Part shown: positions 7,231 to 43,145 of the stretch, piece by piece
How positions within the stretch are numbered: the stretch's first letter is position 1
Layout: the number at the start of each line of letters is the position of its first letter
DNA from: Escherichia coli
GTDB taxonomy: Bacteria > Pseudomonadota > Gammaproteobacteria > Enterobacterales > Enterobacteriaceae
Length of the DNA stretch: 64,000 nucleotides
Assembly (NCBI RefSeq): GCF_050920415.1
Contig: NZ_CP169309.1
Strand: one strand, 5' to 3'
Notes under the pieces: model-generated
Databases searched by the model: none
What the model was told of the DNA's origin: nothing
Seen by the model: only the letters and a program-made list of their open reading frames with translations
Made by a program: the position numbers and the translations under genes

Positions 7231-8993
7231 AAAATCTCCACAATATTGCTGGTATTGGCGGATTCGCCCTGCAGCGGTTCGTTAAACAGTGCGTGCATCG
7301 TTGCCCAGGCCAGATCGGCGTGGCTGGCTTCTTCGCTGCGGCTGGCTTCATAGGTCGGGCGGTTGCCACTGGCGGTGGTGGCGCGACGGATTGCCATAAA
7401 GGACTGCGCTATGTCGGTGTGTCCGGCGTCAAACTCCAGACGGCGGTGGCTGATAATGTCGTAGGCCTTGAGTACCAGGGCGTTTTTAACGTTGGGGTTG
7501 TAGACAAACTCCCGGACGGCAGGAAAAAACGCTTTCACGTTCTCGTAAACCCCGTGACCAACGCCGGTTGAGTCGATACCGATATAGGTCACGTTGTACT
7601 GTTCGGTCAGTTTTTTGATGGCGTCAGCCTGGGCGCGGAAGTCCATTCCGCGCCACTGGTGACGCTCAAGAATGCGGAACTTACCGCCCGGCACGGCTGG
7701 CGGCGCCACCACCACGCATCCGGCGCTGTCGCCGTTCTGCGTACCTTTCGCCGGGTCATATCCGATCCACACTTCGCGCCAGCCAAACGGGCGCAGGGCC
7801 AGTGCATGAAAGTCGGTCCAGACTTCCCAACTGTCCACCATGCACGCCTGCAGCTCGCTGAGCGGGAACACGGACGCGAGATCGTCCACGAACTCGCACA
7901 TCAGCAGGTTCTGGTATTCGTCCGGGCTGTACTCCATGCGCAACTGGTCAAGGTCGAACAGGTTACAGCCGCCGCGCACCGCATCTTCCACGGTGACTAT
8001 CTGGCGGTACTGCCCGTCTGCGCACAGCAGGCCGGGGGCCAGATTGCTGTGGGACAGGTCGATGTCCACCTTATCGGCTTTGTTGCGCCCTCGGTTGAAC
8101 AGCGCACCGGACCAGAACGGATAAGCACTGTGTGTCAGGCTGGATGGCGTGGAAAAATAGGTTTGTCGCCATTTTTTGTGAATAGCCATACCGGAAGCCA
8201 CTTTGCGCAGCTCCTGGAATTTCGGTATCCAGAAATATTCATCCAGATACAGGTTGCCGTGGTAACTCTGGGCCGTGCGGGCATTGGTGCCGAGGAAGTA
8301 AAGCGTGGCCCCGTTAGGAAGCACCATCGGATCGCCTTTCAGCTCCACCTCGACTTCTTTGGCGAAGTCGATGATGTACTGCTTAAAGACGTGGGCCTGT
8401 GCCTTACTGGCGGAAAGGAAAATCTGGTTACGTCCGGTCAGCAGGGCGTCAATCAGGGCTTCACGGGCAAAGTAAAAGGTCGCGCCGATCTGGCGAGACT
8501 TCAGCAGGTTGCGGATGCGATTGGTTTTTCCGGCTTCCCACCAGTGGCGCTGGTAGTTGAACATGGAGGAATGGAAGATTTCTTCCAGCTTCTCAATCTG
8601 TTCATCGGTGAAAACATTCTTTTCCGGCTGACGGCGCGGCCCTTTGTTGCGGTTGGCGACGTTAGGGTTTAAGTCGGCTTCGTTGCCGCCATTGTTAAAC
8701 TTGCCGATCCGCGCGTGGCGCTCCGACTGGCGCGCCAGCAGGTCAATTTCTTTGAAATCTTTCCCTTCTTTGTGCTCCTTCATAATGAGCTGGCAGTAGC
8801 GGGCGGCGGTGGTGAGCTGCATCTGATCCAGCGGCCCATAGTCACCCCACTTGTCGCGTTTTTTCCAGCTGTGAACGGTTGCAACTTTCTCGCCCAGCAT
8901 TTCAGCAATGCGGGCTACGCGGTATCCCTGAAAGTACAGCAGCATGGCCTGCCGACGGGGATCGAGATCTGCGGGTGTCAGTGTGGTGTTCAT
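7227..8993 (-). CDS. terminase large (ATPase) subunit (P2 gpP-like)
   Basis: 588 aa; P2 P-like; downstream of divergent late promoter region. Confidence 0.9.
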   Translation of the reverse strand: MNTTLTPADLDPRRQAMLLYFQGYRVARIAEMLGEKVATVHSWKKRDKWGDYGPLDQMQLTTAARYCQLIMKEHKEGKDFKEIDLLARQSERHARIGKFNNGGNEADLNPNVANRNKGPRRQPEKNVFTDEQIEKLEEIFHSSMFNYQRHWWEAGKTNRIRNLLKSRQIGATFYFAREALIDALLTGRNQIFLSASKAQAHVFKQYIIDFAKEVEVELKGDPMVLPNGATLYFLGTNARTAQSYHGNLYLDEYFWIPKFQELRKVASGMAIHKKWRQTYFSTPSSLTHSAYPFWSGALFNRGRNKADKVDIDLSHSNLAPGLLCADGQYRQIVTVEDAVRGGCNLFDLDQLRMEYSPDEYQNLLMCEFVDDLASVFPLSELQACMVDSWEVWTDFHALALRPFGWREVWIGYDPAKGTQNGDSAGCVVVAPPAVPGGKFRILERHQWRGMDFRAQADAIKKLTEQYNVTYIGIDSTGVGHGVYENVKAFFPAVREFVYNPNVKNALVLKAYDIISHRRLEFDAGHTDIAQSFMAIRRATTASGNRPTYEASRSEEASHADLAWATMHALFNEPLQGESANTSNIVEIF

Positions 8994-9038
8994 GGCACAA
9001 ACCTACAGCCTTGAATGAAGGCTTTCCCCGCCTGCGGT

Positions 9039-9056
9039 TTGTGTGGTTGTCGGTAC
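9039..9056. promoter_or_regulatory. Ogr/Delta-type late promoter activator box (TGT-N12-ACA) in divergent P/O promoter region
   Basis: tgt-gtggttgtcggt-aca in the 142 bp intergenic region between terminase and scaffold genes. Confidence 0.4.
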
Positions 9057-9135
9057 AAATACCGCGCATTGTTTCACTGCCCCCATCACCGCAACCATAA
9101 GGCTCCAGTAAGTTTTTTCTAACGGAGCACGGCTC

Positions 9136-9969
9136 ATGACAGTGAAAGCAAAGCGTTTTCGCATCGGGGTGGAAGGTGCCACTACCGACGGACGCGAAAT
9201 CCAGCGTGAATGGCTGGAACAGATGGCAGCCAGCTACAACCCGGCGGTGTATACCGCGCTGATTAACCTTGAGCACATTAAGTCTTATCTGCCGGACAGC
9301 ACGTTTAACCGCTACGGCAAGGTGACGGCGCTGTTTGCTGAAGAAATCGCGGAAGGTCCGCTGGCAGGCAAGATGGCACTGTATGCCGACGTTGAGCCAA
9401 CGGAGTCCCTGGTGGAACTGGTGAAAAAAGGCCAGAAATTATTCACCTCTATGGAAGTCAGCCCGAAGTTTGCTGATACGGGCAAAGCCTACCTGGTCGG
9501 CCTGGCTGCCACTGATGATCCCGCCAGTCTGGGTACGGAAATGCTGACATTCAGCGCCAGTGCAGCCCATAACCCGCTGGCAAACCGCAAGCAGAATCCT
9601 GCCAATCTTTTTACCGCTGCAGAGGAAACGGTGATCGAACTGGAAGAAATCCAGGAGGACAAGCCGTCCCTGTTTGCCCGCGTCACGGCGCTGTTTACCA
9701 AAAAAGAGCAGTCCGATGACGTCCGGTTCTCTGATGTGCATAAGGCCGTGGAACTGGTCGCCACTGAGCAGCAGAACCTGAGCACGCGCACCGAAAAATC
9801 CCTGTCTGAGCAGGAAGAACGCCTGTCTGAGCTGGAGACTGCTCTGCAGGAGCAGCAAACCGCCTTTAACGAACTGGTGGATAAGCTGAGTCATGAAGAC
9901 AGCCGCCAGGACTACCGCCAGCGTGCAACAGGCGGCAACGCCCCCGCTGACACTCTGACCAATTGCTGA
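9136..9969 (+). CDS. capsid scaffolding protein (P2 gpO-like)
   Basis: 277 aa, position and similarity to P2 O. Confidence 0.85.
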   Translation: MTVKAKRFRIGVEGATTDGREIQREWLEQMAASYNPAVYTALINLEHIKSYLPDSTFNRYGKVTALFAEEIAEGPLAGKMALYADVEPTESLVELVKKGQKLFTSMEVSPKFADTGKAYLVGLAATDDPASLGTEMLTFSASAAHNPLANRKQNPANLFTAAEETVIELEEIQEDKPSLFARVTALFTKKEQSDDVRFSDVHKAVELVATEQQNLSTRTEKSLSEQEERLSELETALQEQQTAFNELVDKLSHEDSRQDYRQRATGGNAPADTLTNC

Positions 9970-9985
9970 TGGAGCATAAAACCCA

Positions 9986-11044
9986 ATGAAGAAGAATACC
10001 CGTTTTGCTTTTAACGCTTACCTGCAGCAACTGGCGCGTCTGAACGGTGTGGCAGTTGAGGAACTGTCCAGCAAGTTCACCGTAGAGCCGTCTGTGCAGC
10101 AGACGCTGGAAGACCAGATCCAGCAGTCCGCCGCTTTCCTGACGCTGATTAACGTCACGCCAGTGACTGAGCAGTCCGGTCAGCTGCTTGGATTGGGTGT
10201 TGGCAGCACCATTGCCGGAACCACTGACACCACCGCGAAAGAGCGTGAACCTGTCGATCCGACGCTGATGATCGATGTGGAATACAAATGCGAACAGACC
10301 AACTTTGACACGGTGCTGACCTACGCGAAGCTGGACCTGTGGGCGAAGTTTCAGGATTTCCAGGTGCGTATCCGTGACGCCATCGTGAAACGCCAGGCAC
10401 TGGACCGCATCATGATCGGCTTTAACGGCGTGAAGCGTGCGAAAACCTCCAACCGTAGCGAAAACCCGCTGCTGCAGGATGTGAACAAAGGCTGGCTGCA
10501 GAAAATCCGTGAGGATGCACCGGATCACGTCATGGGCAGCACCACCACGGGCGGTGAAACCACACCGGGTGCGGTGAAAGTCGGGAAAGGTGGCGAATAT
10601 GCCAACCTGGACGCCGTGGTGATGGATGCGGTCAATGAGCTTATCGACGTGGTCTACCAGGACGATGACGATCTGGTGGTGATTTGCGGTCGTGAGCTGC
10701 TGTCTGACAAGTATTTCCCGCTGGTCAACAAAGAGCAGGAAAACAGTGAAAAACTGGCTGCCGATATGATCATCAGTCAGAAACGCATGGGTGGCCTGCA
10801 GGCCGTGCGTGCGCCGTTCTTCCCGCCGAATGCGCTGCTGATCACCCGTCTGGATAACCTGTCCATTTACTGGCAGGAAGACACCCGCCGCCGTTCGGTT
10901 ATCGACAACCCGAAACGTGACCGGATTGAAAATTTTGAATCCGTTAACGAAGCCTATGTGGTTGAGGACTACCGCTGCGCCGCACTGGTGGAAAACATCC
11001 AGATTGGCGACTTCAGCGCCGCCGCAGCAGAAACCGGAGCGTAA
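9986..11044 (+). CDS. major capsid protein (P2 gpN-like)
   Basis: 352 aa, P2 N-like. Confidence 0.9.
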   Translation: MKKNTRFAFNAYLQQLARLNGVAVEELSSKFTVEPSVQQTLEDQIQQSAAFLTLINVTPVTEQSGQLLGLGVGSTIAGTTDTTAKEREPVDPTLMIDVEYKCEQTNFDTVLTYAKLDLWAKFQDFQVRIRDAIVKRQALDRIMIGFNGVKRAKTSNRSENPLLQDVNKGWLQKIREDAPDHVMGSTTTGGETTPGAVKVGKGGEYANLDAVVMDAVNELIDVVYQDDDDLVVICGRELLSDKYFPLVNKEQENSEKLAADMIISQKRMGGLQAVRAPFFPPNALLITRLDNLSIYWQEDTRRRSVIDNPKRDRIENFESVNEAYVVEDYRCAALVENIQIGDFSAAAAETGA

Positions 11045-11047
11045 ACC

Positions 11048-11698
11048 ATGAGCCTGAGTCCCGCACGGCAGCATCGCCTGCGCGTTCAGGCTGAACAGGC
11101 CGCCCGCGAGGGCGGCAGCGTTCGCCACGCGTCGGGCTATGACCTGATGCTGCTGCAACTGGCAGAAGACCGCCGCCGTCTCAAGGGCGTTCAGTCCACG
11201 GTCAAAAAAGCGGAAATCAAGGTGGAGCTGCTGCCGAAATACGCCGCCTGGGCGGAGGGTGTCCTGGCTGCCGGAGGCGCTCAACAGGATGACGTGCTGA
11301 TGTACGTGATGCTGTGGCGCATTGATGCCGAAGATTATGTCGGAGCGCTGGAGATCGGGCGTCATGCCCTGCGTCATGGCTGGGTGATGCCGCTGGGTAA
11401 CCGCAACGTGCAGACCGTGCTGGCAGAGGAAATGGCAGACGCAGCGCAGAGCGCAATGCTTGCCACTACCGGCTTTGATGTCGATCTGCTGCTGCAGACG
11501 CTGGAGCTGACAGACGGTCTGGATATGCCGGACCAGTCACGGGCGCGTCTGCATAAAGCGATTGGCGCTGTCCTGAGTGAAAGTAATCCGGCTTCCGCCC
11601 TTAATCATCTCAACCATGCGTTACAGCTCGATCCCCGCTGTGGCGTGAAAAAAGACAAACAGCAGCTGGAGCGCAGACTGCGCAATGACAGCCGCTGA
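11048..11698 (+). CDS. terminase small (endonuclease) subunit (P2 gpM-like)
   Basis: 216 aa, position after capsid gene. Confidence 0.85.
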   Translation: MSLSPARQHRLRVQAEQAAREGGSVRHASGYDLMLLQLAEDRRRLKGVQSTVKKAEIKVELLPKYAAWAEGVLAAGGAQQDDVLMYVMLWRIDAEDYVGALEIGRHALRHGWVMPLGNRNVQTVLAEEMADAAQSAMLATTGFDVDLLLQTLELTDGLDMPDQSRARLHKAIGAVLSESNPASALNHLNHALQLDPRCGVKKDKQQLERRLRNDSR

Positions 11699-11793
11699 CA
11701 GAACGTGCCCCCGCGCACGGGCGGCACGGGGTGGCGAAAGGCACTGCCACATCAAAACCCCGTCCACCGCCCTTTATTTCAGGAGAAAGCAGC

Positions 11794-12258
11794 ATGAAGT
11801 TTGTTGCGCCAGAACAGGCACCGGAACAGGCGGAAATCATCAGAAATACGCCGTTCTGGCCTGATGTGGACCTGTCGGAGTTTCGCAGTGTCATGCGCAC
11901 TGACGGCACGGTGACGCAGCCGCGTTTAAAGCAGGTTGCGCTGTCGGCAATTTCGGAGGTCAACGCAGAGCTGTATGAGTTTCGCAGACGCCAGCAGATG
12001 CTGGGGTATGCCTCGCTGGCAGAAGTCCCGGCGGAACAACTGGACGGCAAAAGCGAGCGCATTCAGCACTATTTCAACGCGGTTTACTGCTGGGCACGCG
12101 CCATGCTCAACGAACGTTACCAGGACTATGACGCCACGGCATCCGGTGCGAAGCGAGGCGAGGAACTGGCGGAAGCAAGCGGTGATTTATGGCGTGACGC
12201 CCGCTGGGCCATCAGCCGGGTGCAGGATGCGCCGCACTGCACAGTGGAGCTTATCTGA
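11794..12258 (+). CDS. head completion/stabilisation protein (P2 gpL-like)
   Basis: Start set at ATG 11794 (MKFVAPEQ) preceded by aggag RBS; ORF-track start 11731 is probably upstream read-through. Confidence 0.8.
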   Translation: MKFVAPEQAPEQAEIIRNTPFWPDVDLSEFRSVMRTDGTVTQPRLKQVALSAISEVNAELYEFRRRQQMLGYASLAEVPAEQLDGKSERIQHYFNAVYCWARAMLNERYQDYDATASGAKRGEELAEASGDLWRDARWAISRVQDAPHCTVELI

Positions 12259-12461
12259 TGAAAGTGCGTGCGCATCAGTATGACACGGTGGACGCACTTT
12301 GCTGGCGTCATTACGGGCGCACGCAGGGTGTCACGGAGCAGGTACTGAAGGCAAATCCGGGGCTTGCCGAATACGGCCCCTTTTTACCTCACGGGCTGCA
12401 GGTGGAGCTGCCGGACATTCCGACAACCACCACCGTGCAGACCGTCCAGCTATGGGACTGA
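12258..12461 (+). CDS. tail protein X (P2 gpX-like)
   Basis: 67 aa, same size and position as P2 X. Confidence 0.7.
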   Translation: MKVRAHQYDTVDALCWRHYGRTQGVTEQVLKANPGLAEYGPFLPHGLQVELPDIPTTTTVQTVQLWD

Positions 12462-12464
12462 ATT

Positions 12465-12680
12465 ATGACGCTTGAGCGAATCAGCGCCTTTATCACGTAT
12501 TGCATCGCCGTCGTGCTGGCCTGGCTGGGCGATTTGTCCATCAAGGATGCCTCAACGCTGGGCGGCCTGATGATTGGTGTGCTGATGCTGGCTATCAACT
12601 GGTACTACAAACACAAAGCCTACCAGCTTCTGCGCGACGGGCAGATTTCGCGGGAGGACTATGAATCCATCAATCGTTAA
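12465..12680 (+). CDS. holin (small, two predicted TM segments; pinholin-like)
   Basis: 71 aa with two hydrophobic stretches and charged C-terminus; immediately upstream of SAR endolysin. Confidence 0.6.
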   Translation: MTLERISAFITYCIAVVLAWLGDLSIKDASTLGGLMIGVLMLAINWYYKHKAYQLLRDGQISREDYESINR

Positions 12681-13176
12681 ACGCTGCCTTGTCGGAGCCG
12701 TGCTGGCTATTGCTGCCACGCTGCCGGGGTTTCAGCAGCTTCACACCTCCGTGGAGGGGCTGAAACTGATTGCCGATTACGAAGGTTGTCGTCTGCAGCC
12801 GTATCAGTGCAGCGCGGGTGTCTGGACCGACGGCATTGGAAATACGTCGGGCGTCATTCCCGGCAAAACAATCACGGAACGACAGGCAGCAGAAGGGCTT
12901 ATTTCCAACGTGCTGCGTGTGGAGCGGGCGCTGGAAAGGTGTGTGAAGCAACAGCCGCCGCAGAAGGTATATGACGCTACGGTGTCGTTTGCCTTCAACG
13001 TGGGAACGGGCAATGCCTGCAGTTCTACGCTGGTGAAATTGCTCAATCAGCGGCGCTGGGCAGAAGCGTGCCGACAGTTGCCGCGCTGGGTTTATGTGAA
13101 AGGTGTGTTTAATCAGGGGCTGGATAACCGCCGTGCGCGGGAGATGGCCTGGTGCCTTAAAGGAGCTGGATTATGA
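12661..13176 (+). CDS. SAR endolysin (GH24 lysozyme with N-terminal signal-anchor-release domain)
   Basis: N-terminal weakly hydrophobic Ala/Gly-rich segment CLVGAVLAIAATLPGF; E-8aa-C-5aa-T catalytic spacing (YEGCRLQPYQCSAGVWT). Confidence 0.75.
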   Translation: MNPSIVKRCLVGAVLAIAATLPGFQQLHTSVEGLKLIADYEGCRLQPYQCSAGVWTDGIGNTSGVIPGKTITERQAAEGLISNVLRVERALERCVKQQPPQKVYDATVSFAFNVGTGNACSSTLVKLLNQRRWAEACRQLPRWVYVKGVFNQGLDNRRAREMAWCLKGAGL

Positions 13177-13601
13177 CGCGTGCGCTGGCGGTAGTGGCGG
13201 CGCTGGCACTCGTTGCGCTGGGCTGGCAGTCGTGGCGGCTTAACAGCGCCAGCCACACCATCGAAACGCAGCGCGCGGCGCTGAAAAGTAAAGCGCACGA
13301 ACTAACGAAGAAAAATAGCCAGCTGATCAGTCTGTCCATTCTGGCTGAAACCAATAACAGGGAGCAGGCGCGGCTCTATGCCGAAGCAGAACAGACCAGC
13401 GCGCTGCTGAGACAACGACAACACCGGATCGAGGAACTGAAACGTGAGAACGAGGATTTACGCCGCTGGGCTGATACTCCTTTGCCTGCTGACATTATCC
13501 GGCTGCGGGAACGTCCGGCACTCACCGGAGGTGCAGCTTACCGTCAGTGGTTGTCCGCGAGTGACGCCGTGTCGGCTGGAGCAGGCAGCGCCGCGCACTA
13601 A
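13173..13601 (+). CDS. i-spanin (LysB/Rz-like)
   Basis: 142 aa, N-terminal TM, coiled-coil-like; start overlaps endolysin stop (ATGA). Confidence 0.6.
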   Translation: MTRALAVVAALALVALGWQSWRLNSASHTIETQRAALKSKAHELTKKNSQLISLSILAETNNREQARLYAEAEQTSALLRQRQHRIEELKRENEDLRRWADTPLPADIIRLRERPALTGGAAYRQWLSASDAVSAGAGSAAH

Positions 13602-13734
13602 CGGTGATCTGAACGCATTGCTGGATGAAACGGAGGCCGCCTGGGCGGTCTGTGCAGACAAAGTGGACATGATTATTGCGTGTCAGGAGCGAAACAGTGA
13701 ACAAACCACAATCCCTGCGCCACGCCCTCAATAA
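13444..13734 (+). CDS. o-spanin lipoprotein (LysC/Rz1-like), overlapping i-spanin in +1 frame
   Basis: 96 aa with lipobox LTLSGC; begins inside the i-spanin gene. Confidence 0.55.
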   Translation: MRTRIYAAGLILLCLLTLSGCGNVRHSPEVQLTVSGCPRVTPCRLEQAAPRTNGDLNALLDETEAAWAVCADKVDMIIACQERNSEQTTIPAPRPQ

Positions 13735-14128
13735 AGCAGTGCCTTATGTCCGCAATAACCCGGATAAGCTGCATCTGTTTGTGGATAACGGTTCGCTGGT
13801 TGCCACGGGGGCCAGCTCCATGTCATGGGAGTACCGTTATACCCTCAACGTGGTGATTGAGGATTTCAGCGGCGACCAGAATCTGCTGATGGCCCCGGTT
13901 TTGCTGTGGCTGCGTGATAACCAGCCCGATGCCATCAATAATCCGGCGTTACGGGAAAAGTTATTCACCTTTGAGGTGGATATTCTGCGCAACGATGTCT
14001 GTGATATCAGCCTCAACCTGCAACTGACGGAACGTGTGCTGGTCAGCACTGACGGAAGTGTGTCGAGCGTTGAAGCAGTAGCGGAACCCGATGAACCTGA
14101 AGAAATGTGGACGGTGAAACGTGGCTGA
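13697..14128 (+). CDS. tail completion protein R (P2 gpR-like)
   Basis: Similarity to P2 R (NPDKLHLFVDNGS, RYTLNV motifs); GTG start at 13697 after ggagcg RBS. Confidence 0.8.
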   Translation: MNKPQSLRHALNKAVPYVRNNPDKLHLFVDNGSLVATGASSMSWEYRYTLNVVIEDFSGDQNLLMAPVLLWLRDNQPDAINNPALREKLFTFEVDILRNDVCDISLNLQLTERVLVSTDGSVSSVEAVAEPDEPEEMWTVKRG

Positions 14129-14573
14129 ACTGCAGAAGGTGGACGACTGGCTGAGTGCTTTGCTGGCGAATCTGGAACCAGCCGCAAGAAGCCGAATGAT
14201 GCGCCAGCTGGCGCAGGAACTGCGCCGGACACAGCAGCAGAATATCAGGATGCAGCGCAATCCAGATGGCAGCAGTTATGAGCCGCGCAGGGTAACAGCA
14301 CGCAGCAAGAAGGGGCGCATCAAACGTCAGATGTTTGCAAAGCTGCGCACCACAAAATACCTGAGAACTGCCGCCAGCGCGGATTCTGCCAGCGTACAGT
14401 TTGAAGGTAAGGTACAGCGTATTGCCCGTGTTCATCACTACGGTCTGCGCGATCGCGTCAGTCCAAAGGGGGGAGTCATTAAGTATCCATCCCGAAAATT
14501 GCTGGGTTTAAATGAACATACTGAAAATGAAGTAAGAGATTTACTTTTAAAGTATTTATTGATGAAAAATTAG
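14121..14573 (+). CDS. tail completion protein S (P2 gpS-like)
   Basis: 150 aa; last ~30 codons are AT-rich and abut a convergent AT-rich orphan gene. Confidence 0.8.
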   Translation: MAELQKVDDWLSALLANLEPAARSRMMRQLAQELRRTQQQNIRMQRNPDGSSYEPRRVTARSKKGRIKRQMFAKLRTTKYLRTAASADSASVQFEGKVQRIARVHHYGLRDRVSPKGGVIKYPSRKLLGLNEHTENEVRDLLLKYLLMKN

Positions 14574-14578
14574 AATGT

Positions 14579-15109
14579 TTACGCTCTTAATAAACTTAAA
14601 TAACTTTTTATGCTTTGGCAAAAAGGGAAAAGGTCTATTTTAATTTTCCAGTTTTTTTTGTTTTGAACCCCAGAAGCAATAATAGAACCGTCCCAATATT
14701 TTATTCCATTTTTGCCGGTCTTTTTTGTTAACTCAAAACTTAATGCGTGAATAATTTTATTGCAGCATTCGCGTATAGAATCTTTAACATGACCATCTAT
14801 AACAAAAAGTATATTTTCATGTTCTTCAAATGCTTCTTTCTCAGGTGAGTAATCTGGGTTCCACTCATGTTCACTAGTGTCTTGGAGAATTCGTAGTTTT
14901 GTACAAAGGCTAATAAGATTGTTGCTAATGGTATATTCCAACCATCCGTTGTACGATAACTCCTCCATTTCAAATTCAGTTACTATAGAACCATCATATA
15001 CTTTCTGTGTGGAATATATACGCTGTAAATAAAATTCAGATGAACAGCATAATTGCTCAATTATTCTTGCGTGTTCTTCTATAGCGTAATAATCAATTGG
15101 ATGGCTCAT
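14579..15109 (-). CDS. AT-rich orphan gene antisense to the late operon (176 aa, no recognised domain)
   Basis: ORF on minus strand between S and V; aaagg RBS before ATG (MSHPIDYY); markedly AT-rich; ends 5 bp from S stop. Confidence 0.55.
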   Translation of the reverse strand: MSHPIDYYAIEEHARIIEQLCCSSEFYLQRIYSTQKVYDGSIVTEFEMEELSYNGWLEYTISNNLISLCTKLRILQDTSEHEWNPDYSPEKEAFEEHENILFVIDGHVKDSIRECCNKIIHALSFELTKKTGKNGIKYWDGSIIASGVQNKKNWKIKIDLFPFCQSIKSYLSLLRA

Positions 15110-15140
15110 TCTTTTACCTTTCTTTGATTGGAATTGTATT

Positions 15141-15158
15141 TGTGTCATTTACCACACA
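15141..15158 (+). promoter_or_regulatory. Ogr/Delta-type late promoter box (TGT-N12-ACA) upstream of V
   Basis: tgt-gtcatttaccac-aca ~50 bp upstream of V start. Confidence 0.4.
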
Positions 15159-15204
15159 AGGACGTATTGATGCCATAGATTCAAGGTCCGTGCAACCTAA
15201 CCCT

Positions 15205-15783
15205 ATGAACGCACAACTAACCGAAATCATGCGCCTTATCACCAACCTGATCCGCACTGGTGTAGTCACCGAAGTGGACCGGGAAAACTGGCTTTGCCGG
15301 GTTAAAACGGGCGAGCTTGAAACCAACTGGATCAGCTGGCTGACGCTGCGTGCCGGGAATGCCCGCACATGGTGGCGACCATCGGAAGGTGAGCAGGTGG
15401 TGCTGCTGAGTCTGGGCGGCAATCTGGAAACTGCCTTTGCGCTGCCCGCTGTCTATTCGAATCAGTTCGCACCACCGTCGACGTCGGCAGACGCCTGCGT
15501 GACAGAACATCCTGACGGCGGCTGGTTTGAATACGAACCCACTACCGGGCGCTGGTATGTCAGGGGCATCAAATCAATGGTCATTGAGGCCGCTGACAAC
15601 ATCACCATGAAAACCAGTGAGTTTGTACTGGAGGCTGACCGCACGCGCATTAACAGCGAAGTGGTGATCAATGGTGGCGTTACCCAGGGCGGCGGAGCGA
15701 TGAGTTCTAACGGGATCGTGGTTGATGCGCATCAGCATACTGACGTCCTGAAAGGCGGCGACACAACCGGAGGCCCGGTATGA
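15205..15783 (+). CDS. baseplate spike/assembly protein V (P2 gpV-like)
   Basis: Similarity to P2 V; start set at ATG 15205 (MNAQLTEIMRL). Confidence 0.85.
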   Translation: MNAQLTEIMRLITNLIRTGVVTEVDRENWLCRVKTGELETNWISWLTLRAGNARTWWRPSEGEQVVLLSLGGNLETAFALPAVYSNQFAPPSTSADACVTEHPDGGWFEYEPTTGRWYVRGIKSMVIEAADNITMKTSEFVLEADRTRINSEVVINGGVTQGGGAMSSNGIVVDAHQHTDVLKGGDTTGGPV

Positions 15784-16139
15784 CGCTTTATAGCGGGATG
15801 AACAATACCAGCGGTAAAGCCATTACTGATATTGATCATCTGCGCCAGTCGGTGCGGGACATTTTGCTGACGCCGCAGGGTAGCCGCATTGCCCGTCGGG
15901 AATATGGTTCCCTGCTGTCGGCACTGATAGACCAGCCACAAAATCCGGCATTACGCCTGCAGGTCATGTCGGCAGTGTATGTGGCGCTGAGTCGCTGGGA
16001 GCCACGGCTGACGCTGGATTCCATCACCATTAACAGCAATTTTGACGGTTCAATGGTGGTGGAGCTGACCGGGCGGCGTAATAACGGTGTGCCTGTTTCC
16101 CTTTCCGTATCAACAGGAGCAGAGAATGGCAGTGATTGA
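15780..16139 (+). CDS. baseplate protein W (gp25-like)
   Basis: 119 aa, position and size as P2 W. Confidence 0.8.
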   Translation: MTLYSGMNNTSGKAITDIDHLRQSVRDILLTPQGSRIARREYGSLLSALIDQPQNPALRLQVMSAVYVALSRWEPRLTLDSITINSNFDGSMVVELTGRRNNGVPVSLSVSTGAENGSD

Positions 16140-17034
16140 CCTTTCGCAGTTGCCTGCGCCGCAGATTGTGGATGTGCCGGACTTTGAGACGCTGCTTGCC
16201 GAACGCAAGGCAGAATTTGTGGCGCTTCATCCGAAAGATGAGCAGGAAGCAGTGATCCGCACGCTGGAACTGGAATCTGAACCCGTCACCAAATTGTTGC
16301 AGGAGAATGCTTACCGTGAGTTGCTTCTGCGCCAGCGCATTAACGAAGCCGCGCAGGCGGTGATGGTGGCTTATGCCATAGGGGGCGATCTGGACCAGCT
16401 CGCCGCCAACTACAACGTGAAACGCCTGACGGTGACGCCTGCTGATAATGACGCTGTGCCGCCCGTTGCAGCTGTGATGGAAAGCGATGAAGCGTTACGC
16501 CTGCGTGTGCCTGCAGCCTTTGAAGGGCTTTCAGTTGCGGGGCCAACTGCAGCTTATGAATTTCATGCCCGAAGCGCCGACGGTCGGGTGGCGGATGCCA
16601 GTGCAACCAGCCCAGCACCTGCAGAGGTGGTGCTGACTGTCCTTAGCCGCGAAGGCGATGGAACTGCAGAAAAAGACCTGCTGGACGTGGTGAAAAAAGC
16701 TCTGAACAGTGAGAACGTCCGCCCGGTGGCTGACCGTCTTACGGTTCGCAGCGCAGAAATCATCCCGTATCGCGTGGAAGCCACCATTTTTCTCTATCCG
16801 GGACCGGAAGCAGAGCCGGTAATGGCAGCGGCAAAAGCCAGTCTGCAGAAGTACATTGCCAGCCAGACGAGGCTTGGTCGGGATATTCGCCGTAGCGCCA
16901 TCTTTGCTGCTCTGCATGTTGAGGGTGTTCAACGTGTGGAACTGGCTTCTCCGCTGGCGGATGTGGTCCTGAACAAAACACAGGCGGCATCATGTACGCA
17001 GTGGAGCGTAACCAACGGAGGAACGGATGAATAG
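16126..17034 (+). CDS. baseplate wedge protein J (P2 gpJ-like)
   Basis: 302 aa from ATG 16126 (MAVIDLSQLP). Confidence 0.85.
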   Translation: MAVIDLSQLPAPQIVDVPDFETLLAERKAEFVALHPKDEQEAVIRTLELESEPVTKLLQENAYRELLLRQRINEAAQAVMVAYAIGGDLDQLAANYNVKRLTVTPADNDAVPPVAAVMESDEALRLRVPAAFEGLSVAGPTAAYEFHARSADGRVADASATSPAPAEVVLTVLSREGDGTAEKDLLDVVKKALNSENVRPVADRLTVRSAEIIPYRVEATIFLYPGPEAEPVMAAAKASLQKYIASQTRLGRDIRRSAIFAALHVEGVQRVELASPLADVVLNKTQAASCTQWSVTNGGTDE

Positions 17035-17632
17035 TCTGCTGCCACCGGGTTCAACTTCACTGGAGCGCCGACTGGCGCAAACCTGTAGCGGGATTTCTGA
17101 TCTGCAGGTGCCGCTGCGTGACTTGTGGAATCCGGCTACCTGTCCGGTCAGCTTCCTGCCTTATCTCGCCTGGGCGTTCTCTGTGGATCGCTGGGACGAG
17201 GGCTGGACAGAAAGCGTCAAACGCCAGGTAGTGAAGGATGCTTTTTATATTCATCAGCATAAAGGAACTACCAGTGCCGTGCGGCGGGTGGTGGAACCGT
17301 TCGGATTCCTGATCCGCATTATTGAGTGGTGGCAGACCGGAGAAACACCGGGCACGTTTCGCCTGGATATCGGCGTGCAGGACCAGGGCATCACTGAAGA
17401 TACCTATCTGGAACTTGAGCGGCTGATAAGCGATGCCAAACCATGTAGCCGTCACATGATCGGCATGTCCATCAATCTGCAGACCAGCGGTCCGCATTGG
17501 GTGGGGGCCGCCAGCTATCTTGGCGAAGAAATCACGATCTATCCGTATATCAACGAAACAATTATTTCCGGCGGCACCGCGCATGAAGGCGGGGCGGTCC
17601 ATGTTATTGACACAATGAGAGTGAATCCATGA
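17027..17632 (+). CDS. baseplate protein I (P2 gpI-like)
   Basis: 201 aa, overlaps J stop and H start. Confidence 0.8.
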   Translation: MNSLLPPGSTSLERRLAQTCSGISDLQVPLRDLWNPATCPVSFLPYLAWAFSVDRWDEGWTESVKRQVVKDAFYIHQHKGTTSAVRRVVEPFGFLIRIIEWWQTGETPGTFRLDIGVQDQGITEDTYLELERLISDAKPCSRHMIGMSINLQTSGPHWVGAASYLGEEITIYPYINETIISGGTAHEGGAVHVIDTMRVNP

Positions 17633-19026
17633 GCACAAAATTTTATACCCTGCTGACGGATATTGGCGCGGCGAAACTTGCCAGCGCCGCCGCGCTCGGT
17701 GTGCCGCTAAAAATTACCCATATGGCGGTGGGCGATGGCGGCGGAACATTGCCAACGCCGGACGCCAAGCAGACAGCATTGGTAAATGAGAAACGCCGGG
17801 CTGCGCTGAATATGCTCTATATCGACCCGCAGAACAGCAGCCAGATTATTGCTGAACAGGTGATCCCTGAAAACGAGGGCGGTTGGTGGATACGTGAAGT
17901 GGGCCTGTTTGATGAGTCCGGGGCATTGATTGCCGTGGGCAACTGCCCGGAAAGCTATAAGCCGCAACTGGCTGAAGGCAGCGGGCGTACCCAGACCGTG
18001 CGCATGGTGCTGATTACCAGCAGCACGGACAATATCACCCTGAAAATCGACCCTGCCGTAGTGCTGGCAACCCGCAAGTATGTGGATGACAAGGTACTGG
18101 AGCTGAAGGTGTACGTGGATGATCAGATGGCAAAACATCTTGCCGCACCGGACCCGCATTCACAGTATGCACCCAAAGAAAGTCCGACGTTTACCGGGAC
18201 ACCAAAAGCGCCAACTCCAGCGGCAGGGAATAACACCACGCAGGTTGCGACCACCGCGTTTGTTCAGGCGGCACTGACGGCTCTTATTAATGGTGCGCCA
18301 GCCACGCTGGACACGCTGAAAGAAATAGCCGCAGCCATTAACAATGATCCGAATTTCAGTACCACCATTAACAATGCGCTGGCACTGAAAGCGCCGTTGT
18401 CGAGTCCGGCACTCACCGGAACGCCAACAGCCCCCACTGCTGCACAGTCGGTCAACAATACACAGATTGCCACCACGGCTTTTGTGAAATCGGCGATTGC
18501 AGCAATGGTAGGTTCTGCACCTGCGGCACTGGATACACTGAACGAACTGGCGTCGGCGTTGGGGAATGATCCGAACTTTGCCACGACAATGCTTAATGCG
18601 CTGGCAGGTAAACAACCGCTGGACAATACGCTGACTAATTTGAGTGGAAAGGATGTCGCTGGTCTTCTCGCATACCTTGGTTTGGGGGAATTGGCTCTGG
18701 CTGGCGCAACAACCGGCGCTATGTTGGTGAATGGGTATGTAGCAATTCCATTAATTATTTCTGGCGTTCGGAGACCACTTATTATCCAGTGGGGAGTGGG
18801 GCAGTTTGGGGGAAGTCTGGGGGATGATGCGGGATATTTAAACAATTTCCCTTTCGCTTTTCCGTCGGCGTGCTACGTGATGGTTGCCAGCCACGTGGGG
18901 CATACACCTTCGGGTGCCGGAATACTATCTGCTTCCGCAATCACAAAAAGCGGCTTTCGTGGTTTTTCCAGCGTAGTGACTGCCGCAAATCCTGTATCGG
19001 GCTGTTATGTTGCTATAGGAGGGTGA
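17629..19026 (+). CDS. tail fibre protein H; C-terminal 112 codons lie inside an invertible segment
   Basis: 465 aa; conserved N-terminus (MSTKFYTLLTDIGAAK...); internal tandem repeats; recombination site within codons LLAYLGLGE. Confidence 0.85.
   Translation: MSTKFYTLLTDIGAAKLASAAALGVPLKITHMAVGDGGGTLPTPDAKQTALVNEKRRAALNMLYIDPQNSSQIIAEQVIPENEGGWWIREVGLFDESGALIAVGNCPESYKPQLAEGSGRTQTVRMVLITSSTDNITLKIDPAVVLATRKYVDDKVLELKVYVDDQMAKHLAAPDPHSQYAPKESPTFTGTPKAPTPAAGNNTTQVATTAFVQAALTALINGAPATLDTLKEIAAAINNDPNFSTTINNALALKAPLSSPALTGTPTAPTAAQSVNNTQIATTAFVKSAIAAMVGSAPAALDTLNELASALGNDPNFATTMLNALAGKQPLDNTLTNLSGKDVAGLLAYLGLGELALAGATTGAMLVNGYVAIPLIISGVRRPLIIQWGVGQFGGSLGDDAGYLNNFPFAFPSACYVMVASHVGHTPSGAGILSASAITKSGFRGFSSVVTAANPVSGCYVAIGG
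18181..18624 (+). repeat. two tandem ~222 bp (74 aa) repeats within tail fibre gene
   Basis: SPTFTGTPKAP...NDPNFSTT and SPALTGTPTAP...NDPNFATT segments are clearly homologous. Confidence 0.6.
18665..18690. repeat. Hin/Gin-type recombination crossover site (left, inside H)
   Basis: ttctcgcatacc-tt-ggtttgggggaa: imperfect 26 bp palindrome matching hix/gix-like sites; inverted copy at 20480-20505. Confidence 0.55.
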
Positions 19027-19027
19027 T

Positions 19028-19462
19028 GTGTTTTTTAGTCCATCTTTAAATATTTTTGTGAATCCTGCGCTTAAGGATGACTACATCAATGTAAATTCAT
19101 GGCCAGATGATGCTGTTGAAGTTGATGAGCAGGTGTATATTGAGTTTTCCGGATTACCGCCGAAAGGAAAAATCCGTATCGCTGGGGAAAATGGTTTTCC
19201 TGCATGGTCTGAAATTCCACCACCAACGCATGAGGAACAGATTGCCGCAGCCGAATTGAAAAAACAGCAATTGATTAATCAGTCCAACGAATATATGAAT
19301 ACCAAGCAATGGCCTGGTAAAGCGGCTATTGGTCGTCTGAAAGGTGAGGAACTGGCGCAATATAATTTGTGGCTGGATTATCTGGACGCACTGGAACTGG
19401 TTGATACCTCCAGTGCTCCAGATATTGAATGGCCTACGCCTCCGGCAGTTCAGGCCAGATGA
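19028..19462 (+). CDS. tail fibre assembly chaperone (P2 gpG-like), active orientation
   Basis: 144 aa directly after H stop. Confidence 0.8.
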   Translation: MFFSPSLNIFVNPALKDDYINVNSWPDDAVEVDEQVYIEFSGLPPKGKIRIAGENGFPAWSEIPPPTHEEQIAAAELKKQQLINQSNEYMNTKQWPGKAAIGRLKGEELAQYNLWLDYLDALELVDTSSAPDIEWPTPPAVQAR

Positions 19463-20027
19463 CATCCGGCGCGGTGCTCGTATCTGTTGCCGTCACCGCG
19501 TCAATGTAATCAAGCACGGCGTTAAGCCGGGTGGTTTCTGCCTGCGTCAGCTTCCGCCCGGCCTGTAATTTCAGCTGAATCAGACTGATGGAAGCCATTG
19601 CAGCATCAATCAGTGACTGGCGCTGTGCTTCTGCCGCTTCTACTGCGGCACCGTGTTGTGCCTCAGTATCTGTCACCCATTTCTCACCATCCCATTTATC
19701 GTATGGCGTTAACGGTGAAAGCGTGACATAACCGTCTTTGATGGCACCGATATAATCCACTGTAACAGCAGCACCATTTTCGATTGAGTAAACAGTCTCA
19801 TTGCGATGGTCTTCTTCATGGCTCCATCCCTTACCTGTAAATACTGCCACTCTTCCCGGAATGTTTTCGCCAGGGTCAATACCAGTTGAACAGGCGGGCA
19901 TACTTACGCCAGTATTAATATATTCATCAGACCAGCCCGTATACTCAGATGTTTCAGCATCATAATAAAAACAACGCATATCACCCGGCACTGTAGCCAG
20001 CCCATTTTCATCAAAAACAGGTTTCAT
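19434..20027 (-). CDS. alternative tail fibre assembly chaperone (for inverted orientation)
   Basis: 197 aa minus-strand ORF inside invertible segment; C-terminus resembles the + strand chaperone (DYIDAV/LDYLDAL, IWPELP/IEWPTP). Confidence 0.75.
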   Translation of the reverse strand: MKPVFDENGLATVPGDMRCFYYDAETSEYTGWSDEYINTGVSMPACSTGIDPGENIPGRVAVFTGKGWSHEEDHRNETVYSIENGAAVTVDYIGAIKDGYVTLSPLTPYDKWDGEKWVTDTEAQHGAAVEAAEAQRQSLIDAAMASISLIQLKLQAGRKLTQAETTRLNAVLDYIDAVTATDTSTAPDVIWPELPEA

Positions 20028-20492
20028 TATGCAGCCCTCACAATATAATTAAAGGCGATGTTACGTGGACGGTTTTCATTAGCTGTTGGCACGACACGAG
20101 AGGCGTCGAATCCAAGGTCATCGGTTTTGTCTATAGTAGTTGTGTTATTCGGCATTCTCGCTGATCGTGTTCCTGCATCGTAAAAAGCCCCTCTGATTGC
20201 ATCAAAAGACATACCGATCCCGCCATCTGCGAATCCCTCAATATTTCTTATTGCATCCCCCTGTGAAGATAATAATTGTCGCCCGGCATCCACTCCACGT
20301 CCGTCATCCCAGCCACGAATAAATTCACCGCGTAAATCAGGCAATTTATTTTTCGGATAAACCTTTGCCAGTTCCGGGTATTCTTCAGCAGAAAAAGCCG
20401 CACCGTTGCATTTCAGCCAGCCAGTAGGCGGTGTGGCTGAAGGCCACGGAACAGGCACACCAACGGGTAATGCTGAACCTTCTCCCAAACCA
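20027..20492 (-). CDS. alternative tail fibre C-terminal cassette (promoterless; expressed only after inversion)
   Basis: Minus-strand frame open through right crossover site; contains Mu S'/P1-type fibre tip motif LPDLRGEFIRGWDDGRGVDAGR. Confidence 0.7.
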
Positions 20493-20505
20493 ACGTTTAT
20501 GAAAA
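20480..20505. repeat. Hin/Gin-type recombination crossover site (right)
   Basis: ttctcccaaacc-aa-cgtttatgaaaa; inverted relative to site at 18665-18690; 55 bp upstream of invertase gene. Confidence 0.55.
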
Positions 20506-20560
20506 TGCAGAGATAACGGCTAACTGGCATCATCTCCGGTTTTTATTCAGGGGGATGATC

Positions 20561-21127
20561 ATGCTTATTGGCTATGTACGCGTGTCAACAAATGACCAGA
20601 ACACCGATTTGCAACGTAATGCACTGAACTGCGCGGGATGTGAGCGGATTTTTGAGGATAAAATCAGTGGCACTAAGTCCGACAGACCGGGGCTGAAAAA
20701 GCTGCTCAGGACACTATCGGCAGGAGACACGCTGGTTGTCTGGAAGCTGGACAGGTTGGGGCGCAGTATGCGGCATCTTGTTACGCTGATAGAGGAGTTG
20801 CGCCAGCGTGGTGTGAATTTCCGAAGCCTGACTGACAGTATTGATACCAGTACCCCAATGGGCCGTTTCTTTTTTCATGTCATGGGTGCCCTGGCTGAAA
20901 TGGAACGCGAACTGATAGTTGAACGTACCAGGGCAGGGCTGGCTGCAGCTCGTGCCAAAGGCAGAGTAGGTGGACGCCGTCCTAAGTTGACCACCGAACA
21001 GTGGGCACAGATTGGGCGTTTACTCGAGGCCGGAGAATCAAGACAGCGTATTGCACTGATTTTTGATGTGGGTGTTTCCACAATTTATAGAAAATTTCCG
21101 GCAAATAAGAGTAATGAATCCCCCTGA
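20561..21127 (+). CDS. site-specific DNA invertase, serine recombinase (Hin/Gin/Cin/Pin family)
   Basis: N-terminus MLIGYVRVSTNDQNTDLQRNAL with catalytic Ser; resolvase fold plus C-terminal HTH (GVSTIYRKF). Confidence 0.85.
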   Translation: MLIGYVRVSTNDQNTDLQRNALNCAGCERIFEDKISGTKSDRPGLKKLLRTLSAGDTLVVWKLDRLGRSMRHLVTLIEELRQRGVNFRSLTDSIDTSTPMGRFFFHVMGALAEMERELIVERTRAGLAAARAKGRVGGRRPKLTTEQWAQIGRLLEAGESRQRIALIFDVGVSTIYRKFPANKSNESP

Positions 21128-21175
21128 ATCAGCATTATTTTGATTATCCCTGCAAGTAGACAAATACCGTCATTT

Positions 21176-21193
21176 TGTGTGAATAACGGTACA
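21176..21193 (+). promoter_or_regulatory. Ogr/Delta-type late promoter box (TGT-N12-ACA) upstream of sheath gene
   Basis: tgt-gtgaataacggt-aca ~75 bp upstream of FI start. Confidence 0.4.
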
Positions 21194-21269
21194 ACTGCGC
21201 TTAGCTGTTTGTCAGGCACAATCACTTCAACATAGGGCGAAGCCTAATCCAATCAGGAGGTTCGCCACT

Positions 21270-22442
21270 ATGGCTCAGGATTACCACCACGGGGTGCGCG
21301 TTGTTGAAGTCAACGAAGGCACCCGATCCATTACCACGGTGAGCACCGCCATCGTGGGCATGGTCTGCACGGGCGATGATGCCGATGCAAAAATGTTTCC
21401 TCTTAACAAACCTGTGCTGATCACTGATGTGCTGACTGCCAGCGGTAAAGCGGGTGAGTCCGGCACGCTGGCCCGTTCGCTGGATGCCATCGCTGACCAG
21501 GCAAAACCCGTGACCGTTGTTGTGCGTGTGCCGCAGGGTGAAACGGAAGAAGAAACCACGACCAATATCATCGGCGCAGTGACTGCTGAAGGTAAAAAAA
21601 CAGGCATGAAAGCTCTGTTATCTGCCCAGTCACAGCTCGGCGTTAAACCGCGCATTCTCGGCGTGCCAGGTCACGATAACAAAGCCGTTGCGACTGAGTT
21701 GCTGAGCGTGGCGCAAAGCCTGCGTGGGTTTGCTTACCTGTCAGCGTATGGCTGCAAGACGGTACAGGAGGCGATCACTTACCGTGAAAACTTCAGCCAG
21801 CGCGAAGGAATGCTGATCTGGCCCGACTTTACTGGCTGGGACACGGTGCTGAATGCCGAAGCAACGGCATATGCCACCGCCCGTGCACTTGGTCTGCGTG
21901 CCAAAATTGATGAGCAGACCGGGTGGCACAAAAGCCTGTCCAACGTGGGCGTGAACGGTGTCACCGGAATTTCTGCAGATGTGTTCTGGGATCTGCAGGA
22001 CCCGGCAACCGATGCAGGTCTGCTGAACCAGAACGACGTCACCACGCTTGTGCGTAAAGACGGTTTCCGCTTCTGGGGTTCCCGCTGTCTGAGCGATGAT
22101 CCGCTTTTTGCCTTCGAAAACTACACCCGCACGGCGCAGGTGCTGACGGACACAATGGCAGAAGCACACATGTGGGCGGTGGATAAACCGCTTAACCCGT
22201 CGCTGGCCCGCGACATTATCGAAGGTATCCGCGCCAAAATACGCAGCCTGGTCAGTCAGGGCTATCTCATTGGTGGTGATTGCTGGCTGGATGAGTCGGT
22301 GAACGACAAAGACACGCTGAAAGCCGGAAAACTCACCATCGACTATGACTACACGCCAGTGCCGCCACTTGAAAATCTGATGCTGCGCCAGCGCATCACC
22401 GATCAGTACCTGGTGAATTTCGCCAGCCAGGTCAGCGCGTAA
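21270..22442 (+). CDS. contractile tail sheath protein (P2 gpFI-like)
   Basis: 390 aa, P2 FI-like. Confidence 0.9.
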
Positions 22443-22451
22443 GGGGACAAC

Positions 22452-22967
22452 ATGGCTTTACCACGCAAATTAAAACATCTGAACCTGTTTAACGACGGGA
22501 ACAACTGGCAGGGGATCGTTGAGTCGCTGACGCTGCCGAAATTCACCCGCAAATATGAGAAGTATCGCGGCGGCGGAATGCCGGGTGCAGTGGATGTGGA
22601 TCTGGGGCTTGATGACAGTGCGCTGGACACAGAATTTTCCATTGGTGGTACTGAACTGCTGCTGTTTAAGCAGATGGGCAAAGCCACGGTAGATGGCATT
22701 CAGCTGCGCTTTACCGGCTCTATCCAGCGTGACGATACCGGGGAAGTGCAGGCCGTGGAGCTTGTGGTGCGTGGACGTCACAAAGAAGTGGATTCCGGCG
22801 AGTGGAAGACGGGCGAAAGCAACACCACCAAAGTGACCAGTACCAACAGCTACGCGAAGCTGACCATCAATGGTGAGGTGCTCTATGAAGTGGACCTTAT
22901 CAACATGGTGGAAATTGTGGACGGTGTGGACCTGATGGAAGCGCACCGCAACGCCCTCGGCCTCTGA
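22452..22967 (+). CDS. tail tube protein (P2 gpFII-like)
   Basis: 171 aa, P2 FII-like. Confidence 0.9.
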   Translation: MALPRKLKHLNLFNDGNNWQGIVESLTLPKFTRKYEKYRGGGMPGAVDVDLGLDDSALDTEFSIGGTELLLFKQMGKATVDGIQLRFTGSIQRDDTGEVQAVELVVRGRHKEVDSGEWKTGESNTTKVTSTNSYAKLTINGEVLYEVDLINMVEIVDGVDLMEAHRNALGL

Positions 22968-23021
22968 TGTATCTGAACGGCGCGGGATACCGCGCCAGAA
23001 CCCAATTTACAGGACAGCAAA

Positions 23022-23324: not shown

Positions 23325-23450
23325 CGGTTGACGATCTGGTGGCTGATATCGCCACCATCTTTCACTGGCCGCCATCCGTTACTGACGTTATGCCGCTGAC
23401 CGAAGTGCTGGAATGGCGGTATAAAGCGATTCAGAGAAGCGGGGCCAACG

Positions 23451-42996: not shown

Positions 42997-43145
42997 TCAG
43001 GGATCCTCACCATCTTCGCTCGAAATGCATCGATATTTTTTCAGAATGCTCATTAAAATATCATTCTTTCATGCGTTCGTCATCAATGTGAGAAATAAAA
43101 CACAATGAGTAGAATCTCATGTTTAATTTATTTGTGGGGGTTTAA

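Follow-up and report, generated by a model that had tools for sequence, protein, structure and literature searches.

Predicted Ogr-type activator boxes at the late promoters of a P2-like prophage of Escherichia coli, one of them apparently exchanged together with its neighbouring cargo gene

How might three short dyads serve the four late operons of a P2-like prophage? The question is raised by a 64,000-nucleotide stretch of the Escherichia coli contig NZ_CP169309.1 (assembly GCF_050920415.1; the whole stretch is here called the window), in which an earlier reading of the letters alone (the original prediction) had noticed three TGT-N12-ACA boxes, upstream of O (divergent from P), V, and FI. 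Judged by sequence similarity, the window carries a P2-like prophage: across 92% of the length of bases 6000-29000 the sequence agrees at 99.9% identity with that of Escherichia phage Cartapus (Elveevirus, Peduoviridae), and the same bases match many Fels-2-like prophages of E. coli, Klebsiella, and Salmonella at about 96%. The genes follow the order of P2: Q and P point leftward, and to their right come the O-to-S and V-to-G blocks, a tail-fibre segment that is invertible and includes an invertase gene, the FI-to-D block, and ogr. Ogr-type activation of the P2 late operons, which provide head, tail, and lysis functions, has been textbook knowledge since the 1980s. It is highly probable (roughly 0.9), from the evidence assembled below, that the three boxes are the activator sites of the four late promoters of this prophage. 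As a further member of the P2/186 late-promoter system, this central finding is correct but ordinary.

The three boxes of the original prediction proved to be exact matches. The first (9040-9057, TGTGTGGTTGTCGGTACA, extended by its flanks to TTGT...ACAA at 9039-9058), which would act in both directions, falls between the start codons of P (8993, minus strand) and O (9136); the second (15141-15158, plus strand, TGTGTCATTTACCACACA) lies in the 95-bp gap between the ATG of an antisense orphan gene (15109, minus strand) and that of V (15205); and the third (21176-21193, plus strand, TGTGTGAATAACGGTACA) is found 48 nucleotides (nt) past the stop codon of an invertase gene and 76 nt ahead of the FI ATG. 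A site scan was made with a symmetric matrix of 26 columns, trained on 75 non-redundant boxes of relatives, with the box cores of the window itself excluded. The box of the V promoter (pV) received the top score (24.6 bits), followed by the shared box of the P and O promoters (pP and pO; 23.8 bits) and the box of the FI promoter (pF; 22.8 bits), with the next site at 14.8 bits and the best of 20 shuffles at 17.4 bits. No further matrix site in the 64-kb window exceeds the shuffle maximum, and no extra box of the satellite-promoter kind was found above it. The extended form TTGT-N12-ACAA has only three matches in the window, which are the three boxes.

The boxes are kept in relatives while their central bases, spacers, and flanking sequence vary freely. 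Related loci were fetched from IMG/VR, 80 each for V, FI, and P (77 of the P loci could be anchored and 76 scored, one being too close to the locus end), and a perfect box precedes V and FI in all 80 loci of each (for FI, 60 unique sequences that include several unrelated families of promoter) and is found between P and O in 74 of the 76 scorable loci, for an overall count of 234 of 236. The two exceptions at the P locus (L177 and L185) have near-identical P genes and rearranged DNA that replaces part of the P-O promoter region, with the box absent; they may be degraded prophages or assembly joins. Among distinct P-O intergenic sequences the box is present in 46 of 46, constantly 46 nt from the P ATG, with the outer TTGT/ACAA invariant and the central 8 nt occurring in at least 12 forms.

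A fixed geometry accompanies the boxes, all four promoters consisting of a box, a gap of 34 or 35 nt, and a -10-like nAnnnT hexamer. The hexamers are TAGGTT for pP (9005-9000, minus strand, 34 nt from the box and at -12 to -7 relative to the A of the P ATG), AACCAT for pO (9093-9098, plus strand, 35 nt from the same box), CAACCT for pV (15193-15198, plus strand, at -12 to -7 relative to the V ATG), and CAACAT for pF (21228-21233, plus strand, 34 nt from its box). In relatives, nAnnnT is found at a gap of 34 on the pP side (28 of 28 unique sequences), at a gap of 35 on the pO side (34 of 36), and at a gap of 34 for pF (59 of 60), and these hexamers are all that is conserved as core promoter. 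A scan for canonical sigma-70 promoters on the gene strand upstream of P, O, V, and FI found none, as expected of activator-dependent promoters. Placed about 7 nt past the hexamer, which in the window is 47-48 nt from the box, transcription is predicted to start at about 8993 (pP), about 9105 (pO), 15205 (pV), and about 21240 (pF). The corresponding distances from box edge to start are 47 (pP), 47 (pO), 49 (pV), and 48-50 nt (pF) in the P2 record, and 47 (p12), 48 (pV), and 49 nt (pJ) in that of phage 186; thus, the gap of 34 or 35 nt from box to hexamer, the spacing from box to V ATG, and the starts predicted from them agree with the geometry of both phages.

The factor that would act at these sites is encoded by the prophage itself. 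An ogr homologue (28176-28394, plus strand) specifies a protein of 72 aa with a match to PF04606 (Ogr_Delta, E 9e-21) and an intact CX2CX22CX4C zinc finger, 54% identical to Ogr of P2, 62.5% identical to B of 186, and 76% identical to the Fels-2 homologue. In the proposed mechanism, this zinc-finger protein of the Ogr/B type, made after the onset of replication, would bind the 18-bp partial dyads (in flanked form TTGT-N12-ACAA) and recruit RNA polymerase from about -55. The recruitment goes through the C-terminal domain of the RNA polymerase alpha subunit in P2, and we infer the same for the window. Each core promoter would be a weak nAnnnT hexamer 34-35 nt downstream of the box with no usable -35 element, and RNA polymerase should therefore fire only with the activator bound at about -55. 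Because the dyad is symmetric, the single box at 9040-9057 could serve the divergent pP and pO, so that three boxes cover four promoters.

From the shared box, transcription would proceed leftward through the P-Q operon (6193-8993, minus strand: terminase large subunit P, 7227-8993, and portal Q, 6193-7227) and rightward through the O-to-S operon (9136-14573, plus strand: scaffold, capsid, small terminase, head completion, X, holin, endolysin, spanin, R, and S). The boxes at 15141-15158 and 21176-21193 would drive, respectively, the V-to-G operon (15205-19462, plus strand: baseplate V, W, J, and I, tail fibre H, and assembly G) and the FI-to-D operon (21270-28107, plus strand: sheath, tube, E/E', tape measure, U, and D), all four operons being delimited from open reading frames and the Cartapus annotation. 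The original prediction had likewise taken the boxes as marks of Ogr-dependent late promoters, with one box for the divergent P and O, and it is borne out by the PF04606 gene and by the site positions in the P2 and 186 records, the boxes of the window standing at the positions of the P2 activator-site annotations and the shared box also at that of the 186 B site for p12/pV.

Several considerations weigh against reading the boxes as activator sites. The phage-specific support consists of sequences, geometry, conservation, and the activator gene, from which we infer binding, transcription starts, and activator dependence. In P2 and 186, the sites that have been studied by experiment depart from the perfect dyad, so that a perfect match is neither necessary nor, alone, sufficient. 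Most of the related loci come from close relatives, with protein identities of 90-100%, and are hence non-independent, except at the hotspots between S and V and upstream of FI. The training sequences of the matrix were chosen for containing TGT-N12-ACA, and the invariance of its six bases is therefore partly built in, a bias mitigated by the fact that nearly every related locus carried such a box (the 234 of 236 counted above). Finally, the bare motif is not enriched, its 16 matches in 64 kb comparing with 15.9 +/- 3.4 expected from dinucleotide shuffles. Comparable density at random positions was the sign by which, according to the original prediction, its reading would be seen to fail, and for the bare motif such a density is what was found; the matrix instead ranks the three boxes first to third. 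The density test by the bare motif is too weak, as a motif count alone proves nothing, and with the bare motif at chance density the case rests on position and conservation.

A sceptic might take the three boxes for chance matches to a loose motif of six specified bases, with no regulatory role, citing this exact agreement with chance density and the finding that TTGT-N12-ACAA gives at least three matches in 22 of 100 shuffles; but late operons are preceded by three intergenic regions only, each of which holds one of the boxes at the nucleotide position expected from P2 and 186, and the boxes are conserved in the related loci amid changing surroundings. Moreover, ten distinct and mostly unrelated alleles of the region upstream of V each have a perfect box at 46-47 nt, which a chance of about 2.5e-4 per position cannot yield. 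Chance is thus effectively refuted already by the comparative sequences, and we consider it extremely improbable.

The dyads could also serve another factor, such as host CRP, or form an RNA or DNA hairpin such as a terminator, and a simple scan does flag a terminator-like hairpin at 9051-9064 that overlaps the first box. CRP sites, however, have the form TGTGA-N6-TCACA, which is TGT-N10-ACA, against N12 in the boxes. A hairpin is contradicted by the pattern of conservation, in which only the outer TTGT/ACAA is kept and the inner bases vary without compensation. The sites also fall where Ogr sites are annotated in P2 and B sites in 186, and all of the box-bearing elements examined also encode an Ogr-family gene. 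Such other functions are very unlikely, and the boxes are best taken as Ogr-type activator sites.

A fourth match to TGT-N12-ACA (8982-8999), which the original prediction did not list, lies over the start codon of P, 58 nt from the real box; its matrix score of 14.8 bits is within the range of the shuffles, it is without the T/A flanks, and it has disappeared from Fels-2 and from 18 of 77 relatives. It was considered as a second site like that of Psid in satellite P4 and rejected, being not conserved, wrongly flanked, and downstream of the predicted pP start, and it is judged to be a chance occurrence outside the system. Weaker matrix matches at 27909-27926 (before ogr, 10.4 bits) and 43087-43104 (9.9 bits) were set aside, both being below the shuffle maximum of 17.4 bits.

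How did the pV box come to lie beside an orphan gene? According to the original prediction, insertion of the orphan had left the V promoter intact. In relatives with an empty site between S and V (500465-1, Fels-2, and about 55 IMG/VR loci), the box begins 4 nt after the S stop codon (TGTATCAGCACTGATACA, or TGTGCCACTGCTGGCACA in Fels-2), the V ATG follows exactly 46 nt further on, and the spacer after TGTATCAGCACTGATACA starts AGTTGCAGC. When the window is compared with this empty allele (by alignment and blastn breakpoints), similarity decays about 100 nt before the end of S and is back only 13 nt before the V ATG, the box and the spacer up to that point differing from the empty-allele versions. 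The last 100 nt or so of S (14470-14573, about 33 codons) are AT-rich and recoded relative to the empty-site relatives, with a C-terminus still homologous as protein, which places the left recombination junction inside the essential tail gene S. With homology broken from the 3' end of S to 13 nt before the V ATG, the box beside the orphan must be non-ancestral and belong to an AT-rich swapped module (14470-15204, left edge approximate), in which the recoded 3' end of S is followed by the orphan gene and then by the box and core promoter of pV. The composition profile gives a G+C content of 0.24-0.39 for this module (about 14470-15200) versus 0.49-0.65 for its flanks. The mechanism offered by the original prediction was thus wrong at this point.

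Comparison of the S-V region among phages whose V proteins are at least 96% identical yields at least 10 alleles, comprising the empty site and cassettes of 546, 631 (the window), 844, 880, 986, 1041, 1208, 1876, and 1883 bp. The left breakpoints of the cassettes, determined by blastn against the empty allele, are scattered within the 3' end of S, and the right breakpoints fall 0-15 nt upstream of the V ATG in all nine cargo cassettes. The cassettes show no relationship to one another over the last 75 nt ahead of V (median 32% identity outside the box), and every allele (representatives of ten distinct alleles and Fels-2) has its perfect TGT-N12-ACA at a distance of 46 or 47 nt from the V start codon. 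The only other invariant upstream bases over the 11 alleles are A(-11) and T(-7), and the box itself shifts by 1 nt between alleles. In a divergent P2-like prophage of Enterobacter cloacae, S and V likewise enclose a homologue of the orphan (60% identical), and this S-orphan-V block is 71% identical to the window over the 1.7-kb region compared and contains its own box (TGTACCACTCATAACACA) at 47 nt. As unrelated pre-V sequences each have their own box, these alleles indicate that the box and core promoter travel with the cargo in S-V modules.

Mere insertion of the orphan between S and an ancestral, untouched V promoter would likewise leave V with a complete box at the proper distance and an AT-rich antisense gene alongside it, and in one cassette (c1883) the break is indeed only 2 nt ahead of the S stop codon. 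Such an event would not explain why the window differs in box and spacer from the empty site, with its TGTATCAGCACTGATACA box 4 nt past the S stop codon, or why about 100 nt of S are recoded; nor would it explain why homology resumes 0-15 nt before the V ATG in all nine cargo cassettes, or why the E. cloacae phage has S, orphan, box, and V as one homologous block at 71% identity. Simple insertion is therefore improbable, and replacement of the module as a unit is preferred. In this way the S-V hotspot would swap cargo together with the promoter of an essential baseplate operon. The alleles form a natural series of unrelated promoters that keep only the half-sites, two bases of the -10 region, and the spacing, and they provide in effect what a mutational analysis of the requirements of such promoters would yield. 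The literature on hotspots of these phages (PMC9122126; a 2026 bioRxiv preprint) covers the cos-proximal locus and the turnover of cargo, and leaves Ogr, the late promoters, and the S-V locus unmentioned.

What do the fixed spacings imply for translation? The P2 record places the start of the V operon on the first base of the V coding sequence, and the V mRNA of the window is likewise predicted to be leaderless, starting at 15205, the A of the ATG; the invariant A(-11) and T(-7) and the fixed spacing of 46-47 nt fit a leaderless V as in P2. The P gene may be similar. Its ATG is exactly 46 nt from the shared box with no indel in 28 unique variants, compared with a variation of several nt on the O side, and with this gap the A of the ATG is the 47th nt from the box, in agreement with the 47-50 nt from box to start in P2 and 186. 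The hexamer at -12 to -7 of P takes the forms TAGGTT, TATGTT, TAGGCT, TAACCT, and TAATCT in relatives, with T1, A2, and T6 invariant and the middle free, so that the AGG resembling a Shine-Dalgarno sequence is not constant among them. The start codon homologous to those of P2 and 186 is the ATG at 8993, as the N-terminus aligns with their P proteins from Met1, and there is an in-frame stop three codons upstream. O and FI in the window have clear Shine-Dalgarno sequences (GGAG before the O ATG at 9136, AGGAGG for FI) and predicted leaders of about 31 nt from pO and about 30 nt from pF. Thus P appears, from these alignments, to have lost its leader and Shine-Dalgarno sequence in the Fels-2-like clade, and its mRNA is probably leaderless there. 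If so, P would join V as a second leaderless late gene, a V start at the ATG being recorded only for P2. We know of no earlier report of a leaderless large-terminase gene P, and a literature search on leaderless gene V of P2 returned nothing useful.

The orphan gene itself (14579-15109, minus strand; 176 aa) is antisense to the late operons and occupies the position of orf30 in P2. Its start at 15109 is fixed by the conserved N-terminus MSHPI, and its product is assigned to PHROG 18838, a family of unknown function, with no match in Pfam or PADLOC. Sixteen clusters of homologues consist entirely of hypothetical proteins in which the motif SIRECCNKIIHA is invariant. Distant homologues are also found outside phages. 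An AlphaFold2 (AF2) model of the orphan protein is confident (pLDDT, the predicted local distance difference test score, of 90) and has no neighbour in the Protein Data Bank (PDB) by Foldseek. Assignment as a HEPN-domain toxin was considered and dropped, as the R-x7-H spacing (Rx4-6H in HEPN) and a half made of beta-sheet misfit the all-alpha four-helix fold.

The gene adjoining V is antisense in eight of the nine cassettes, as it is in P2 (orf30). In the cassettes the antisense cargo gene starts 4-48 nt from the box (in the window, at the annotated start of 15109), and P2 orf30 starts 83 nt upstream of the V ATG. A promoter for such a cassette gene would then overlap the box or pV. The promoter scan found none on the minus strand for the orphan, and a looser promoter scan for the cargo genes of the nine cassettes gave only weak and inconsistent matches. 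By eye, a TACAAT at 15138-15133 (minus strand) abuts the V box, without a usable -35 element, and any -35 element would overlap the box. A divergent Ogr promoter for the orphan from the V box was also considered and rejected: its start would be at 15094, 47 nt leftward of the box, and so within the orphan coding sequence (ATG at 15109). Taken jointly, these features allow a tentative proposal, which we hold rather doubtful: that box spacing fixes the 5' AUG of leaderless V and P transcripts, that each S-V cassette is a self-contained two-way module with an antisense cargo gene 4-48 nt from a private box and core promoter, and that Ogr binding in late lytic growth could turn a cargo gene expressed in the prophage off and V on.

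Elsewhere in the prophage, the invertible tail-fibre segment (19434-21127) contains two antisense fibre and assembly open reading frames and an invertase of the Gin/Cin type (PF00239, E 2e-53), the end of which is the stop codon that precedes the pF box. The coordinate offset between the window and Cartapus shifts by 284 bp between the V and FI regions, and the 8% of the prophage without a Cartapus match is therefore probably located in this segment. The gene for transfer-messenger RNA (tmRNA; ssrA, 29027-29389, minus strand) lies just past the rightmost phage open reading frame, about 600 bp after ogr, and is followed by smpB-side host genes as in the 500465-1 record, which suggests that the prophage is integrated next to or into ssrA. 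Between the P2-type cos region (located from the Cartapus record) and Q, a gene at 5486-6184 (plus strand) encodes a DUF4145 protein with a weak PADLOC match to PD-T7-4 (E 1e-6), and is situated in the known gpA-gpQ defence hotspot of P2-like phages. Between ogr and ssrA, a gene at 28421-28903 (minus strand) encodes a protein of 160 aa, annotated as a putative exonuclease in Cartapus, with weak partial PADLOC matches to PDC-S48 and SspE, and is a further candidate for an accessory or defence function.

The late-gene switch is hereby annotated for a common prophage family of E. coli, Salmonella, and Klebsiella, and the coordinates and the extended matrix (TTGT-N12-ACAA, 34 or 35 nt, nAnnnT) should be useful for annotation and for inducible late-gene reporters. 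Among the known systems with which this switch can be compared, P2 (NC_001895) has the same four operons, PP, PO, PV, and PF, and its record annotates a single "activator binding site; pO, pP promoters" and one site each for pV and pF, along with the mapped starts; its late promoters and their activator Ogr are attributed to Christie and Calendar 1985, as cited in PMC3931495. As is predicted for the window, P2 has its dyad centre about 55 nt upstream of the start and a V mRNA that starts at the ATG, and it resembles the window in an AT-rich, antisense, nonessential orf30 that abuts the V site, and in an activator that is a 72-aa zinc-finger protein encoded after gene D. It differs in that its own sites are imperfect (TGT-N12-CCA for pO/pP and pF, TGT-N11-ACA for pV) whereas those of the window are all three perfect, in that its Ogr is only 54% identical to the homologue in the window, and in that its cargo is the 261-aa Orf30 instead of the 176-aa protein of PHROG 18838.

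Phage 186 (NC_001317) likewise has one B site common to the divergent p12 and pV and one for pJ, and its B protein is the closest characterised activator, at 62.5% identity. Unlike those of the window, its sites are TGT-N12-CCA, the region before orf32 (the V homologue) has a left half-site only (TGT-N12-CGG) and no annotated B site, and no cargo gene is present between the S and V homologues. In both P2 and 186 the distance from box to P ATG is 69 nt, the leader has been mapped at 23 nt, and a GAGG sequence precedes the ATG, whereas in the window the distance is 46 nt and there is no conserved Shine-Dalgarno sequence.

The closest resemblance is to the group of Fels-2, 500465-1, and Cartapus (Felsduovirus, Wadgaonvirus, and Elveevirus), which has, as does the window, a 142-bp P-O region in which the box stands 46 nt from the P ATG, perfect boxes before V and FI, an invertase with an invertible tail-fibre segment, and a location next to ssrA. 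Fels-2 and 500465-1 differ from the window in their empty S-V site, a gap of 68 bp in which the box begins 4 nt after the S stop codon. The annotation tables of Cartapus, 500465-1, and Fels-2 contain no promoter or activator-site feature. The delta-dependent promoters of satellite P4 (Psid and PLL) have the same TGT-N12-ACA consensus. So do the putative late promoters of the Stenotrophomonas phage Smp131, in which one box (nt 4381-4398) has been assigned to both the P-type and the O-type promoter (PMC3931495).

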